Positions 6,632 to 47,069 of a stretch of 64,000 nt of DNA are shown in pieces. Each line of letters opens with the position of its first letter. Within the stretch, counting starts at the first letter, position 1. The translations under genes were made by a program, and so were the position numbers. Under the pieces are notes generated by a model that was not told where the DNA came from, made no database searches, and saw only the letters and a program-made list of their open reading frames with translations. Where the stretch lies: NCBI GenBank assembly GCA_964552395.1, contig CAZKGM010000008.1, forward strand, positions 24,063 to 88,062, written 5' to 3'. The DNA comes from an uncultured Thermoanaerobaculia bacterium (GTDB lineage: Bacteria > Acidobacteriota > Thermoanaerobaculia > Thermoanaerobaculales > Sulfomarinibacteraceae).

Positions 6632-7711
6632 ATGAGCATGCAGGACAACGAGCTGAGCCGGGGATTCACCCTCATCGAGATGCTCATTGCGGTCGCCGTC
6701 TTGGTGGTCGTGTTCGTGGGCCTGCTGGGGATGCTCGAGAGCTCGTCGAGGGTTTCCAAGGTCGAGTCCGAGCTGGCCGACGTGCAGGAGAACGTGCGCT
6801 ACGCAACCTACGCCCTGGTCCGTGTCGTGCGTACCGCGGGCGGTACGAACCTGCCCCTGGCCCAGATGGTGGGTGGCAGCCTCAACTGGGTGTCCCTGCA
6901 GATCCTGGACAACCAGACGGCGGCCTTCACCGATGACATGAGCGGCAGTCACACCCCGTTCCCGGGCAGCGACGTGCTCCTCGTCCGTGGGTTTTTCCAG
7001 TACCCGGTGTACTTCGTCGATCCCCATATTGACGTCGACGTCTCCGCGGGGACGGTGACCCTGAAGGCAACCACCGGCGGCTCCGGCATGACCCAGGCGG
7101 TGCCAGCCACCGGAACGGAGATCACCGGCAAGGGGCTGGTGCTGATCGGCCGCAACCAGTACGCGGTGGCCACGATCACGGGTGGGACCGCCAGCGGCAG
7201 CGACATGACGGTGACCTTTGCCGGCGGCGGCAGCGACACCTGGAACACGCTCAACCCCGGTGGCAGCTATACGCCTCCCGGGTTCGACGTCTACCAGGTG
7301 GGGATTCTCGATTCATACGCCTTCTTTGTCGACCAGTCGTACCAGCTGATGCGGTGGCGCGCGGGGGCGAGCGGCGGGGTCACCGAGCCGGTGGCCCTCG
7401 GCATCGGCGGCTTCCAGGTGGCGCTGGAGCTGAGGGTCGACACCAACGGCGATGGGGTCCCGGATACTCCCCAGTGGTTCTACACCGGTGGCGCCGGCGC
7501 CCCCACCGACCCACAAGCGGTGAACGGCGAGCCGCTGATGCTGCGCCTGACGGTTCTCGGCCGAACGTCCTTTCCGGTCCCCAACTGGGGCGAGCCGACT
7601 GCCACCTTCAACGTCGAAAACATGGATCCCACGACCGTGACTCCGTCCATGCGCCGGTCCAAGTGGCGCACCCTGCAGGTGCAGGCGGCGTTGCGGGACT
7701 TCGTGCTGTGA
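6632..7711 (+). CDS. pilW: Type IV pilus minor pilin, PilW-like
   Basis: The in-frame ATG at 6632 gives MSMQDNELSRG|FTLIEMLIAVAVLVVVFVGLLGM. This is followed by ...VQENVRYATYALVRVVRTAG, which is typical of PilW. The listed ORF start at 6368 overlaps pilV and was rejected. Confidence 0.7.
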   Translation: MSMQDNELSRGFTLIEMLIAVAVLVVVFVGLLGMLESSSRVSKVESELADVQENVRYATYALVRVVRTAGGTNLPLAQMVGGSLNWVSLQILDNQTAAFTDDMSGSHTPFPGSDVLLVRGFFQYPVYFVDPHIDVDVSAGTVTLKATTGGSGMTQAVPATGTEITGKGLVLIGRNQYAVATITGGTASGSDMTVTFAGGGSDTWNTLNPGGSYTPPGFDVYQVGILDSYAFFVDQSYQLMRWRAGASGGVTEPVALGIGGFQVALELRVDTNGDGVPDTPQWFYTGGAGAPTDPQAVNGEPLMLRLTVLGRTSFPVPNWGEPTATFNVENMDPTTVTPSMRRSKWRTLQVQAALRDFVL

Positions 7712-7715
7712 GGAA

Positions 7716-8276
7716 ATGATGACGGAAAGAAACGCCGAGCCTGTCGAGAGCTGTACCGCCGAGGAGATCGGCCGCGCCGCCGGCGAGCGCGGATTCGCGC
7801 TCATCCTGGCGCTGATGGTGGCGCTGGTCCTGGCCTTCTTGGGCGTCGGCCTGTTGCTCCAGACCTCCCTCGGCCTGCAGGCGAGCGGCGCCGACCGCTG
7901 GGTGGTCAAGTCCCTCAACGCGGCGGACGCCGGCGTCATGATGGAGATCGAGCTGATTCAGTCCGGGTATGTCCTCGATCCCAACACCCTTCCCGGCGCC
8001 AACAACAACCGCTTCGTTCTTCAGGACGACCCCTCGCTTCCGGGCCTGCTGCGGGGCGAGTACGAGGTTCGGATCGGACGTCTGTGCGAGGTCCAGCCGG
8101 CGACGCCGATTATCGGCTGGGAGGAGCAGTACCGGCAGCGGTACCTGCACGTCGAAAGCCGCGCCACCCGCTCGATCGGCGCCCTGGTCGGCACGACCGG
8201 CGCACAGGTGCGGGCCGACGTCACGATCTGGCCTTTCGACATGACCAACATCACTCCTCTGACGAGATGCTACTAG
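7716..8276 (+). CDS. pilX: Type IV pilus minor pilin, PilX-like (non-canonical leader, no E+5)
   Basis: N-terminus ...GERG|FALILALMVALVLAFLGVGLLLQTSL...SLNAADAGV matches the PilX N-terminal pattern. It is fourth in the operon, 4 nt after the pilW stop. Confidence 0.6.
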   Translation: MMTERNAEPVESCTAEEIGRAAGERGFALILALMVALVLAFLGVGLLLQTSLGLQASGADRWVVKSLNAADAGVMMEIELIQSGYVLDPNTLPGANNNRFVLQDDPSLPGLLRGEYEVRIGRLCEVQPATPIIGWEEQYRQRYLHVESRATRSIGALVGTTGAQVRADVTIWPFDMTNITPLTRCY

Positions 8277-8285
8277 GGGGCGAAG

Positions 8286-37083: not shown

Positions 37084-38154
37084 ATGAAGGTCCTTGTGGC
37101 GATGTCCGGAGGGCTCGACTCCTCGGTCGCGGCTCTCGAGATGGTGAAGGCAGGCCACCAGGTGGAGGCGATATTCCTACGGCTGTGGGATCCGCTCGCG
37201 AGCGGGAAGGGCTCACGCTGCTGCTCCATCGAGGACATGGAGGACGCGAGAATCGTGGCCGATGCCCTCGGCATACCGCTTCGCGAGGAGTGCACTTCGC
37301 GGCGGTTCTTCGACCAGGTGTTTCATGCCTCCCTGGAGCGCTACGCCGAGGGGCTGACGCCGAACCCGTGCGTCGTGTGCAATGAGAAGATCAAGTTCGC
37401 CGAGCTGGAGGCGGTGGCGGACGCGGCTGGTGCCGAGGTCCTGGTGACAGGGCACTACGCCCGACTGCGTGGCGGGGAAGGAGGGCCGGTGCAGCTGCTG
37501 CGGGGAGCCGACGCCGCGAAGGACCAGTCCTACTTTCTCCACCGGCTCGGGCAGGATCGCCTGCGGCGGGTGGCGTTTCCCGTCGGCGGCATGACGAAGG
37601 ACGAGGTCCGCCGGAAGGCACGGGAGGCGGGCCTACACGTCGCGGGCAAGACAGAGAGCCAGGAGCTCTGCTTCGTTCCCGAGGGGACCTCGTATGCAGA
37701 TCTGATGGAGGCCTGGCTGCCGGACCGAGTGCGAGCCGGCGAGATCGTGGACAGCGGCGGCCGGCGCCTTGGTTCGCACGGCGGCGTTCACCGTTTTACT
37801 GTGGGCCAGCGCCGCGGCCTCGGTGTTGCCTCGGACCGGCCCCTGTACGTCCTGAAGCTGCAGGCCGATACCGGGACCGTCGTGATCGGCGACCGTGACG
37901 AGCTGATGGCGTTCTCGTTCGAAGCAGACGATGCGCGCTGGGTCTCGGGTCGGCCCCCGGCCGCCAGGTTCACCTGCTCGGTGCAGGTTCGCTCGCGGCA
38001 CCGTGCCGTTCCAGCCCGGGTCGAGGTTCGGGGTGAGGGCGTCCTGATCGTGCCGGTGGAGCCGATGCCGGCGCCTGCGCCGGGGCAAGCTGCCGTCCTT
38101 TACGACGGCGATGAAGTTCTCGGCGGCGGCTGGATCAGTGCCGCTGAGCGATGA
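37084..38154 (+). CDS. mnmA: tRNA-specific 2-thiouridylase MnmA
   Basis: The PP-loop is MKVLVAMSGGLDSSVAA. Also present are CNEKIKF, KDQSYFL and full-length MnmA-like collinearity. The start is taken at ATG 37084; the listed ORF start at 37009 overlaps the terminator. Confidence 0.9.
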   Translation: MKVLVAMSGGLDSSVAALEMVKAGHQVEAIFLRLWDPLASGKGSRCCSIEDMEDARIVADALGIPLREECTSRRFFDQVFHASLERYAEGLTPNPCVVCNEKIKFAELEAVADAAGAEVLVTGHYARLRGGEGGPVQLLRGADAAKDQSYFLHRLGQDRLRRVAFPVGGMTKDEVRRKAREAGLHVAGKTESQELCFVPEGTSYADLMEAWLPDRVRAGEIVDSGGRRLGSHGGVHRFTVGQRRGLGVASDRPLYVLKLQADTGTVVIGDRDELMAFSFEADDARWVSGRPPAARFTCSVQVRSRHRAVPARVEVRGEGVLIVPVEPMPAPAPGQAAVLYDGDEVLGGGWISAAER

Positions 38155-39187
38155 GCCTGCGGTGGAGCCCAGGAGGAAATGACCCGCGCCACGGCAGATC
38201 CGCGGCCTGCGGCCGCACCCCTCGGGGACCGTCAGTCGGTCCTCGAGGCAAGCCTCGGTCCGTCCTGCCGGCCCTGAGGGGCCGCTGCGCTCGGATCTGC
38301 CTCCCGAGTCCTCCAGAGCATCAGGAGGCCCCCCTCCCTTCTGATGGGGGAGGGATCGCGCAGGAGCGCCCTCTCGCCCCCCGCCGCTGCACGAGTTTCG
38401 TCGCCGCGACCACGAGGTCAGCGACTCCTCGCTCGCTGGCAGCGAGGCGCGAGGAGAACGCCCTGCGCGATCCCGCTTGCACGGGTGTGGCGCGATCGCA
38501 TGTCCCGTGCGGGCGTTGCCCGCAGCCCGCTGTGCGGGCCGGCGGGGCGGGAACGGACCGGTGCGTCGGCTCACGGCCGCACCCGTCGCGGTCGCCGGGA
38601 GGAACCGTGCTCGGAGGCTTACCCTCACCAGAGTTCGGGCCAAGTCTCCTGCGCCCGGTCCCCCCGCCGCCCGCGGCGGGACGGCCGCTCGCCTCCTTCC
38701 GTCCCGTCCCCGCCCCGCCGCGGGACCGTTCCTGGGGGAATACCCCGCGCCCGCCAAGCCGGTGATGAAGTGATTGAGTGATTACATGATGAAGTTCCCC
38801 CGCCCACCCGGGAGAAGGCGGACGTAGCGCGCTTCAGAAGACGGTGCGTTCGACGGAATGTGCCATCTATGACATCTCCGCTGGACGCGCTTCACGAGCC
38901 CATCGCGCTCGCGCGGAATGTCATAGGTGGCAATTCGCGGGGAAGGCGATCGGCTGTGTGGCCTCAGGGACCAGGGAGGCGGCTCGAGCGATTCCGAGCG
39001 GTCGCCGTGGAGACGCGGAACCGTTCTGGTGGCCTTGCGACCGCCCGGAATCGTGAGACGGGCGTTCGCCACGCGAACGCACGGCCGCCGGAGCCACAGA
39101 GAAGACCGCTCTCCCACGGCCCTTGGCTTTCGGAGAAGATGCCCCACCACTGACTTCACGACGCTACGGCCGGTCCGCGCCGCCGCG
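38155..39187. other. About 1 kb non-coding, GC-rich, hairpin-dense region between two convergent 3' ends (candidate structured-RNA locus or decayed gene)
   Basis: All six-frame ORFs here translate to R/P/G/A-rich nonsense. A/T positions show no codon phase: I counted 9/10/7 over 38461-38580 and 11/12/14 over 38941-39060, against 3/19/10 in mnmA at 37981-38100. There are many perfect helices, including a nested multi-stem element at 38193-38301 and a 13-bp helix at 38863-38875/38918-38930. Confidence 0.6.
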
Positions 39188-39502
39188 TCAATTCGTCGAT
39201 TTCGTTGGCCCGCCGTCGGGGGATCTTGGTGTGGGCGGCTCCTGGATCGGACCGAACGTCTGCTCGTACATTTGCAGGTTGTGGGTGAGGGCGCGGAGCA
39301 GCTGACGTGCCTGGAACGGAGTCATCATGAGACGTGCGACAACCGGGATGTCCTGGCGGCCGGGAAGCGTGCGGCCGAAGTCGAGCACGACCTCGGAGTA
39401 GTTGTGGGCGATGCTAACGAAGTTCGAGTACTCACCCATGGCGACCTCTGCCGGCACACTCAGCTTGGGTGGTTGCGGCGGGCTGGATGGCTGGTTCGTC
39501 AT
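39188..39502 (-). CDS. DUF3467 family small protein
   Basis: The 104-aa product from ATG 39502 is MTNQPSS...AMGEYSNFVSIAHNYSEVVLDFGRTLPGRQDIPVVARLMMTPFQARQLLRALTHNLQMYEQTFG. This matches the DUF3467 pattern as I remember it. The listed ORF start at 39790 is an upstream extension. Confidence 0.65.
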   Translation of the reverse strand: MTNQPSSPPQPPKLSVPAEVAMGEYSNFVSIAHNYSEVVLDFGRTLPGRQDIPVVARLMMTPFQARQLLRALTHNLQMYEQTFGPIQEPPTPRSPDGGPTKSTN

Positions 39503-39595
39503 GATTCCCTCCGGCGCCATTGTAGCCCTCACGACCCGAGCGGTGCTGCACGGTCTCCAGTGTGGGACAATGCTGCGCGAGCAGGAGGTTGCGCC

Positions 39596-40474
39596 ATGAA
39601 TAGGCTCGTAGCTGCGTCCCTGGTTGTGGCGGTGGTGGCGACCGTGGCGGTGGCGCAAGAGGCGGCCGATCCGTACGCCGCAGTCGACGCCGCCTGGCAG
39701 CAGAGAAGCGTGGGACAGAAGGACGGGTGGGCCGATCCAGCGGTTGCCAAGCGGGTCGGCGGCACGGCGGGGGAGGCGCTGAAGGCGCACCCGGGGGATC
39801 TCGGCGCGGCGTGGCGGGCGCTGCGGGCCGCCTACTACCTGGGGGAGGTGTCAGCGACAACCCAGGACGAGAAGCAGGCTGCCTTCGCCCGTGTCAAGCC
39901 GCTGTACGACAGATTCTGGCCGGTGCTCGTCCATCACGTTGAGGCGGCCTCCAACACCCGCTTCAAGCGTCTCGACGAAAGCCAGCGCGCTCGGGCTCTT
40001 GCCGACATGCCGGGCGCCAAGGAGTTCGTCTTCTGGTCGGCCGCGTGCTGGGGGAAGTGGGGGCTGGCCTACGGCAAGATGAAGGCGGCTCGGCAGGGAG
40101 TGGCGCACAAGGTGCGGGATCTTGCTGAGATTGTCGTCGCGATGGACGAGGGGTTCGAGTTCGCCGGCGGTCGCCGCATCCTCGGCCGTCTGCACGAGGT
40201 GTCGCCGCGGATCCCCTTCATTACCGGTTTCATCAAGCGCTCGTTGGCGCTCGAGAACCTGCGCCGGGCGGTCGAGATCGCTCCGCAGTACGGGCAGAAC
40301 CAGCTCTTCCTGGCGGAGGCGGAGCACGATCTTGGCACCACGGCCGAGCGCGAGGGGGCGCCGCGGCGGCTCCAGCAGCTGCTCGAAAGCGCGCCGCTGG
40401 CCGGCTACGAGATCGAGGAGGCATTGACTCGTCGCGAGGCGCGCGAGCTGCTCGCCTCGTGGGAAGGCAAGTGA
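39596..40474 (+). CDS. Secreted all-helical TPR-like protein (possibly TatT-family)
   Basis: The ATG at 39596 gives the signal peptide MNRLVAASLVVAVVATVAVAQ. The helical repeat composition and GGRRILGRLHEVSPRIPFITGFIKRSLALENLRRAVEIAP are reminiscent of TatT-like proteins. The family call is tentative. Confidence 0.45.
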   Translation: MNRLVAASLVVAVVATVAVAQEAADPYAAVDAAWQQRSVGQKDGWADPAVAKRVGGTAGEALKAHPGDLGAAWRALRAAYYLGEVSATTQDEKQAAFARVKPLYDRFWPVLVHHVEAASNTRFKRLDESQRARALADMPGAKEFVFWSAACWGKWGLAYGKMKAARQGVAHKVRDLAEIVVAMDEGFEFAGGRRILGRLHEVSPRIPFITGFIKRSLALENLRRAVEIAPQYGQNQLFLAEAEHDLGTTAEREGAPRRLQQLLESAPLAGYEIEEALTRREARELLASWEGK

Positions 40475-46723: not shown

Positions 46724-47069
46724 CCCGGGGCTTGCGTATCCCCTCGAGTCAGGTTGTTTCCGTGCACGCATGATGCCGGAGGGGCAACCACTGAACCGCC
46801 AAGGCGCGAAGCACGCAAAGATGAGAAAAGGAATGTCTCATTAGCGAGTTTGGCGGCTTCGCGGTTCACAATCAAGCCCCATCGACACTCCAGACCATGC
46901 CTGACAAGAACGAAGCTGAGCGAAGGAACTTGCGAGAGCCGGGGCTACTTACTGCCACCCAGGGGTGAAGAGTTGGTGGGGGGTGAGCCCGTGACGAGCT
47001 CATTCCCCGCGCTGTTCCCTTTCGGCCACGCCGGTGGACCGCTCACAGGGCGTCGGTTGACCCCGTCGG

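Follow-up and report, generated by a model that had tools for sequence, protein, structure and literature searches.

The DNA analysed here (the window) is a 64,000-nucleotide stretch of a contig from an uncultured Thermoanaerobaculia bacterium, and the subject of this study is the spacer between mnmA and a DUF3467 gene within it. The two genes are convergent, and 1033 nt (38155-39187) separate the stop of mnmA (38154, plus strand), the product of which matches the Pfam family tRNA_Me_trans, from that of the DUF3467 gene (39188, minus strand). The spacer is GC-rich, and the window's own sequence is also present, identical, on the Joint Genome Institute (JGI) metagenome contigs L001 and L002. 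An earlier reading of the window from its letters, here called the original prediction, proposed that this non-coding and hairpin-dense kilobase is a candidate large structured RNA of no recognised family, perhaps comprising two elements. The spacer is a mosaic insertion of two lineage-restricted, non-coding families of dispersed repeats that occur in related uncultured Acidobacteria. We refer to these as element A (38193-38739, with a conserved core at 38325-38739) and element B (approximately 38756-39187, i.e., up to the DUF3467 stop codon).

Comparison of the orthologous site in relatives identifies the kilobase as an insertion. Scans with MnmA of genome contigs and of metagenome contigs returned one close relative each. 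The closest genome is an acidobacterial metagenome-assembled genome (MAG; L006) with an MnmA that is 84% identical, while MnmA is ~68% identical among four lineages, L166, L168, and L086/L173 all showing ~68% identity to the window. In L166 and L168, the gene order is the same and the convergent stops of mnmA and the DUF3467 gene are just 2 and 12 nt apart; hence, the kilobase in the window was inserted. The L086/L173 lineage carries a homologue of the first half of the spacer at the same site, directly after mnmA. The MAG L006 is without element A. Here, the mnmA stop is followed after ~35 nt by an IS630-type insertion sequence (IS) and then by a homologue of the second half (B) only. This IS (7106-8366) comprises a helix-turn-helix open reading frame (ORF) and a DDE_3 ORF; its ends are inverted (ACTAAGTGCTC), and its target is TA. 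It occupies the spot that element A has in the window (just after 38154) and may have deleted element A in the L006 lineage. In L173, a ~183-nt insert (7058-7240) resembling MITEs (miniature transposable elements of the inverted-repeat type), with terminal inverted repeats AGCCCGCATTTCTCACAC, lies right after the mnmA stop, and this insert is missing from L086 and L174 (98% identical). With the IS630-type element in L006 and the MITE-like insert in L173 at the same spot, this junction of convergent genes is a hot spot for insertions.

Both halves of the spacer recur elsewhere. A search with a profile hidden Markov model (nhmmer) over 1.67 Mb of fetched sequence located element A at nine distinct sites, and the other 63 kb of the window hold no further copy. 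In addition to mnmA/DUF3467 (window and L086/L173), the copies lie between the genes for Lon and a T2SSE-ATPase (Lon/T2SSE; L175), SpoIID and PALP (L178), PgpA and ECH (L184), radical-SAM and SMC (L186), DUF2344 and a response regulator (L190), and DsbH and RluB (L192, a more diverged copy), and there is a further site in L191. Pairwise identity among the paralogues is 83-88%. Recognisable homologues are also carried by two more distant lineages, of which L086 is 71-75% identical to every one of the paralogues. Several of the paralogous contigs share JGI samples with the window's own contig, and from this co-occurrence we infer that they belong to one genome. Moreover, three independent Logan assemblies of mnmA (L003-L005) all stop at 38216. 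This position is the end of the first 30-mer common to other copies of element A, as would result from a branch in the de Bruijn graph at the repeat boundary. Element B is found in at least six places. The copy in L184 (73% identical over 394 nt) lies beyond the ECH gene, L186 has B on both sides of A, L191 has it after A, and copies are also present in L178 and L006. Thus, A followed by B-type sequence is seen in the window, L186, L191, and partly L184, and B also occurs solo.

The spacer is non-coding, as the original prediction had it. The spread of GC content over the three codon positions is 0.04-0.10 at 38176-38775 and at most 0.18 elsewhere in the spacer, relative to 0.22-0.48 in mnmA and 0.32-0.40 in the core of the DUF3467 gene. 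None of six ORFs overlapping the region matches Pfam at E<=1. Gene callers do place a 204-aa ORF across the first half of the spacer, and used as a probe it yields eight "homologues." However, the reading frame switches among the aligned "homologues," indicating that it is the DNA that is conserved and not a protein. An exhaustive phmmer search with this spurious ORF against 1.84 billion representative proteins gave only 15 matches, which implies that the element A family is rare and lineage-restricted. Approximately 13 of the 15 (query counted) appear to be spurious ORFs derived from element A. These are the clusters P0121-P0129 and P0134-P0137, R/P/G/A-rich "hypothetical proteins" that apparently represent element A translated in various frames; 13 public protein clusters of this composition, the window's included, would accordingly be artefacts of the element. 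One other match, P0133 (1705 aa, 30 repeats), was discarded as a concatemer artefact of the Nextera adapter (VSYTHLDVYKRQ repeats). A 568-aa MnmA (P0013) that seemed to read through into a GC-rich spacer was also discarded, as it is encoded by an mnmA at another place with other neighbours.

The alignments indicate that both families keep their folded shape, and not their sequence, through compensatory changes. In the nine-sequence alignment of the element A core (A7), 93.9% of the cells are paired and both sides have changed in 32 of 130 pairs. The expectation from column shuffles is 7.9 ± 2.4, with none of 500 shuffles reaching the observed value, and slid controls give 4-7. The full-length alignment of element A (A4) has 20 pairs with both sides changed (7.4 ± 1.9 expected). 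For element B (alignment A8), both sides have changed in 31 of 68 pairs. Shuffles give 18.3 ± 2.6 and slid controls 4-12, and the covariation score is 0.42 vs 0.21. Because the same alignments also served to predict the structures, the difference from the slid controls is inflated. Even so, entire helices have changed from one copy to another, e.g., GCCATCTATGACAT/ATGTCATAGGTGGC, GCCGGGCACAGCTTCT/AGAAGCTGATGCCGGGC, and CCTTGATGTTTC/GAAACGTCAAGG. Element A is, moreover, recognisable where the flanking coding DNA is just 71% identical, which argues for purifying selection. The alignments A4, A7, and A8 can serve directly to seed covariance models.

Element A in the window starts after a linker (38155-38192) that follows the mnmA stop. 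The linker holds GGAAATGACCCGCGCC (38175-38190), an imperfect direct repeat of GGGAATACCCCGCGCC (38736-38751); the two 16-nt copies bracket element A, and the second also opens the linker on the B side. Related ...GATNCCCCGNCAC motifs lie upstream of element A in L175, L184, L186, and L190, a single related motif, GCCCCCGCCCC, lies between the mnmA stop and B in L006, and loose CCCCGCC-type motifs flank other copies of A as well. These sequences look more like a linker module shared by the copies than like a duplicated target. The first letters of element A are GGCAGAUCC and its right end reads ...CCGTTCCTGGGGGA. Its 5′ end in the window family is module a (38193-38301), a rod-like multi-helix unit closed by the outer 10-bp stem GGCAGATCCG (38193-38202)/CGGATCTGCC (38292-38301). 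Inside this stem are the helix CCCCTC (38218)/GAGGGG (38276) and the hairpins GGACCG (38226)/CGGTCC (38237) and CGAGGC (38244)/GCCTCG (38252), and in helices 1-3 of the module the columns 38:78 and 41:75 of the alignment are compensatory pairs. The module at the 5′ end can be exchanged. A different multi-hairpin module, closed by GGGCATGGGC/GCCCATGCCC, is found in L086 and L192, L191 has neither, and a second module a is present 3′ of element A in L184 (complete), L190 (its 5′ part), and L178 (with a nested B-type hairpin).

A variable short hairpin region (38302-38324; the poorly conserved columns 109-135 of alignment A4) connects module a to the core (38325-38739), which is ~415 nt long with 12 helices. 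The core includes a long helix (38352-38474) with the apical hairpin GACC-ACGA-GGTC (38408-38419), its apex carrying the invariant GACCACGAGGTCA and CUCCUCGCUCGCUGGC. Further along are the motif GCGATCGC (38492-38499), the twin hairpins (38509-38523 and 38525-38539; together 38509-38539), a long-range domain in which ~38540-38561 is paired with 38699-38720, the helix CCCGCCGC (38663)/GCGGCGGG (38673), and the 3′ end CCTGGGGGA (38731-38739). Some conserved motifs in A and B are apparently unpaired, i.e., GCGATCGCATGTCC, located between the core long helix and the twin hairpins, CCUCCUUCC, and CGGCCGCCGGAGC.ACAGAGAA. A conserved and predicted-unpaired GCCUCCUUCC is also found at 38691-38700 of the window and in the homologous columns of all copies of A. 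It resembles an anti-Shine-Dalgarno sequence on the plus strand and reads GGAAGGAGG on the minus strand, where no start codon follows; a small minus-strand ORF after this conserved GGAAGGAGG was for that reason dropped as a candidate.

Element B is opened by four tandem octamers (38762-38795), with the repeated GATGAAGT at 38764 and 38788. The period and copy number of this array are conserved (window 38762-38795; L184 7740-7775; L186 5840-5875). The unit differs: it is GTGATKRA (GTGATTAA-like) in L184 and the window but AGTGACGR (AGTGACGG) in L186. The array could bind a protein or be DNA that is prone to slippage. A conserved block, CCCACCC...GCAGCGCGC...GCGTTCGACGGAAYGTGCC (GTGCC), comes after the octamers and is followed by three hairpins, the sequences of which are almost wholly different between copies: B2 (38860-38933, including the 13-bp helix 38863-38875/38918-38930), B3 (38989-39053), and B4 (GCGTTCGC-CAC-GCGAACGC, 39062-39080). 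The element continues with a conserved CGGCCGCCGGAGCCACAGAGAA (39082-39103) and a tail up to the DUF3467 stop; the conserved 3′ end of B is CGGCCGCCGGAGC.ACAGAGAA. Considering both families, the modules are arranged as a-core, a-core-a, core alone, A-B, B-A-B, and B alone.

As a single strand, the spacer is far more stably folded than shuffled sequence. Relative to dinucleotide shuffles, the z-score of 38193-38739 is -6.8 on the plus strand and -10.6 on the minus strand, and that of 38756-39187 is -3.4 and -2.2, respectively. No Rfam 15 family, among them RNase P, tmRNA, SRP, 6S, ROOL, GOLLD, OLE, HEARO, and the group II intron, matches anywhere in the window at gathering score. At E<=10, the interval 38000-39350 matches only miRNA, snoRNA, and viral models, all of them weakly and far below threshold, and ARAGORN finds no tRNA and no tmRNA. 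A "distant" blastn search against plasmids and phages was without match. Three motif scans of the IMG/VR viral contigs gave chance matches only, as L193 turned out to be coding and nhmmer finds no element in L193-L201. Together, Rfam, the phage, plasmid, and viral collections, and a literature search provided no matching element. The features of the original prediction thus hold up well: every helix it listed is found where it had been placed, the structure is dense beyond chance in both halves, no known RNA family gives a credible match, and the two elements it suspected on either side of an A/T-richer spacer correspond to A and B. In addition, the conservation and covariation in relatives that it proposed to look for support helices in both families, and the Pfam search of six ORFs gave no relic of the decayed gene that it also considered.

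The original prediction refrained from assigning a strand. With pairs predicted on both strands, there is no strand preference, the counts of G-U vs A-C cells being 16 vs 22 in A and 7 vs 5 in B. The loops likewise show no preference for the GNRA or UUCG tetraloops. Folding of A is more stable on the minus strand, yet this strand is also the G-rich one. A consensus scan of 37900-39700 detected no sigma-70-like promoter and no intrinsic terminator, and the sequences upstream of the copies of A share no promoter-like motif. With respect to the neighbouring genes, element A is positioned 3′ of the stop of a co-oriented gene at six of the eight sites that could be scored, starting 38-123 nt after the stop at most sites, and four sites are between convergent genes. 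The L190 copy is antisense to both neighbours and the L192 copy is in a divergent promoter region.

The window and its relatives contain further repeats and insertions. The intergenic region between SecF and RelA/SpoT (46733-46926) belongs to another dispersed repeat family that is 72-76% identical to L175 2172-2337 and L184 12026-12230, and its GC content of 0.61 is lower than that of the genome. A further family of ~200-nt repeats, 85-87% identical, is represented by L178 7008-7209, L178 2703-2913, and L186 7052-7265. These repeats end in GTAGTAGATCGCGGGCGGATGACCCGGGC, which also precedes element A in L175 and L184. Close to the spacer, between the DUF3467 gene and a hexapeptide-repeat gene, lies an ORF of 292 aa (39596-40474, plus strand) that matches nothing in Pfam and has an N-terminus like a signal peptide. 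It is absent from L166 and L168 and hence is a second lineage-specific insertion beside the spacer.

What, then, are elements A and B? Three readings are ruled out, i.e., a gene in decay, a spacer that is GC-rich by chance, and an RNA gene present in single copy. What is left is a mosaic of two dispersed repeat families that conserve structure. The remnant of a decayed protein-coding gene, as the called 204-aa ORF and its "homologues" might be taken to indicate, has a negligible chance of being correct: the codon-position signal and Pfam matches are absent, the "homologous" ORFs change frame, indels of 1-2 nt run throughout the DNA alignment, and substitutions follow base pairs and not codons. 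One (or two) locus-specific large structured RNA gene, unique in the genome and filling the spacer, would agree with the non-coding, structured sequence and its conservation at the same site in L086. Such a gene is nevertheless very improbable considering that A occupies at least nine sites and B at least six in unrelated contexts, that assemblies break at the repeat boundary, that L166 and L168 have an empty site, and that L006 lacks A. In this respect, the large structured RNA of the original prediction survives as non-coding, structured sequence with compensatory changes in relatives, but not as one locus-specific gene. Its caveat that the hairpins might have a REP-like repeat origin proved right in substance, since both halves are dispersed repeats, although not short REP palindromes. 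A and B are multi-helix units of 0.4-0.55 kb and hence may act as RNA. We consider it doubtful that the elements are cis-acting 3′-end modules kept for the host, i.e., factor-independent termination or insulation signals or stabilisers of mRNA 3′ ends as proposed for REP/BIME. The start of A 38-123 nt after a co-oriented stop at most sites, the four convergent sites, the very stable structures, and the lack of canonical terminators in the region would be explained in this way. However, 0.4-1 kb is far beyond what termination or stabilisation needs, close relatives manage with stops 2-12 nt apart, and some copies are antisense to both neighbours (L190) or lie in a divergent promoter region (L192).

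The reading that we favour, at roughly an even chance, is that A and B are non-autonomous, structure-dependent mosaic repeats that have colonised the 3′ ends of genes. Filled and empty orthologous sites (L166 and L168 empty, L006 without A) together with dispersed copies are what is expected of mobile elements. In this scenario, A and B would have been inserted into an original mnmA/DUF3467 spacer of ~2-12 nt. Broadly akin to BIME, BOX, RIME, or MITE-type elements, they might spread to, or recombine with, one intergenic "safe haven" from another, in most cases directly 3′ of a stop codon and frequently where two genes converge. The single strand in its folded form, as single-stranded DNA or as transcript, would be what is recognised or selected, and upon read-through from a flanking gene the elements could act as bulky 3′ structures. 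Several observations weigh against mosaic repeats of this kind. Element A has no terminal inverted repeats, as its left end GGCAGATCCG and right end ...CCGTTCCTGGGGGA are not complementary, and inverted ends are seen only in the internal module a. No clear target-site duplication surrounds A, just the loose CCCCGCC-type motif on both sides, and the fetched flanks contain no transposase (including Y1), RAYT, or reverse transcriptase linked to its copies. The paralogues are old (12-17% diverged) and hence give no sign of recent mobility, and no strain-level polymorphism of filled and empty sites was seen. Moreover, the compensatory changes between paralogues and the recognisable homology in lineages with coding DNA that is only ~71% identical suggest long-term purifying selection on each copy, which is unusual for selfish repeats and is what an RNA useful to the host would display.

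These points lead to the possibility, which we hold tentatively and as the less expected outcome, that A and B encode structured non-coding RNAs (ncRNAs) of a new family, which would be large (0.4-0.55 kb), present in multiple copies, and active in trans. In size and complexity they would be like ROOL, GOLLD, OLE, and HEARO, and each copy would have its own transcription and be retained by selection, either for the host or for a protein partner that is unlinked. The main points in favour are the old and diverged paralogues that still fold with compensatory evolution; the extreme folding z-scores, the multi-helix architecture with many compensatory pairs across three lineages, the sequence blocks conserved where flanking coding DNA is 71% identical, and the conserved, apparently unpaired motifs GCGATCGCATGTCC, CCUCCUUCC, and CGGCCGCCGGAGC.ACAGAGAA agree with it. 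On the other hand, the scan shows no promoter or terminator, the G-U/A-C cells are symmetric, the orientation to neighbours varies (L190, solo B copies), modules occur in shuffled, partial, or nested form, the closest relative (L006) has lost A at the mnmA site, and Rfam gives no match. It is possible, then, but by no means to be expected, that A and, separately, B constitute large structured RNAs of a class not described before, present in multiple copies and restricted to one lineage of uncultured Acidobacteria. By analogy, such a class, with an A core of ~415-550 nt and at least 12 covariation-supported helices, could be the RNA part of a mobile or RNA-guided system like HEARO-IscB or, alternatively, an RNA machine in its own right, comparable to ROOL or GOLLD.

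Either outcome would be of interest. If A and B are selfish or structural repeats, the known range of bacterial mosaic repeats extends to unusually long multi-helix units with a structure that was preserved across a deep divergence, and these would account for the breaks at this place in assemblies of the lineage. The scale of A overlaps with that of the large ncRNAs, which leaves a substantial chance of a new RNA class. If transcribed, the elements add to the very short list of bacterial ncRNAs of more than 400 nt with complex conserved folds, and to our knowledge the Acidobacteria are a phylum with almost no characterised RNAs.

Large structured ncRNAs and mobile elements of bacteria provide points of reference. 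ROOL, GOLLD, OLE, and HEARO are large bacterial structured ncRNAs, of which HEARO is multi-copy and mobile and provides the RNA for IscB. Elements A and B resemble them in their length range (0.4-0.8 kb) and many covariation-supported helices; they differ in matching no Rfam model even at E<=10, in having no IscB ORF and no prophage or tRNA context, and in the shuffling of modules between copies. MITE-type elements are similar in being dispersed, non-autonomous insertions relative to empty orthologous sites that cause assembly breaks, whereas element A has neither terminal inverted repeats nor a clear target-site duplication and, at 12-17% divergence, does not reflect a recent burst. ORF-less group II introns, especially those of class C that insert after terminators, share with A a size of ~0.5-0.7 kb, a structured and GC-rich sequence, and a position 3′ of a co-oriented gene. 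However, A shows no match to Intron_gpII or D1-D4 at E<=10 (no domain V/VI signal), begins with GGCAGAUCC instead of a GUGYG 5′ end, and has a variable 5′ module. Two other candidates were dropped, integron attC sites for having no R'/R'' GTTRRRY cores and no array, and a CsrB-like sponge because GGA loops are not conserved.

Further counterparts are the mosaic intergenic repeats, i.e., BIME/REP of E. coli, BOX of S. pneumoniae, RIME of rhizobia, and ERIC, with units of 35-300 nt. Like A and B, these are non-coding, dispersed in intergenic regions, and typically near gene 3′ ends; their modules occur in varied combinations, as is the case for A and B, and form stable hairpins with no linked transposase. 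There is no sequence similarity, the copy number of A and B is apparently low, and the units are 5-10 times longer (415-nt core, 12 helices), with deep conservation of structure. Units of 0.4-0.55 kb also fall outside the REP/BIME definition of ~35-nt imperfect palindromes in high copy that are linked to RAYT, while the modular composition is that of REP, BIME, and BOX. Collectively, dispersed, modular, and hairpin-forming intergenic repeats are already known; what is new here is the scale, with a core of 415 nt and 12 helices that is deeply conserved and present in low copy.

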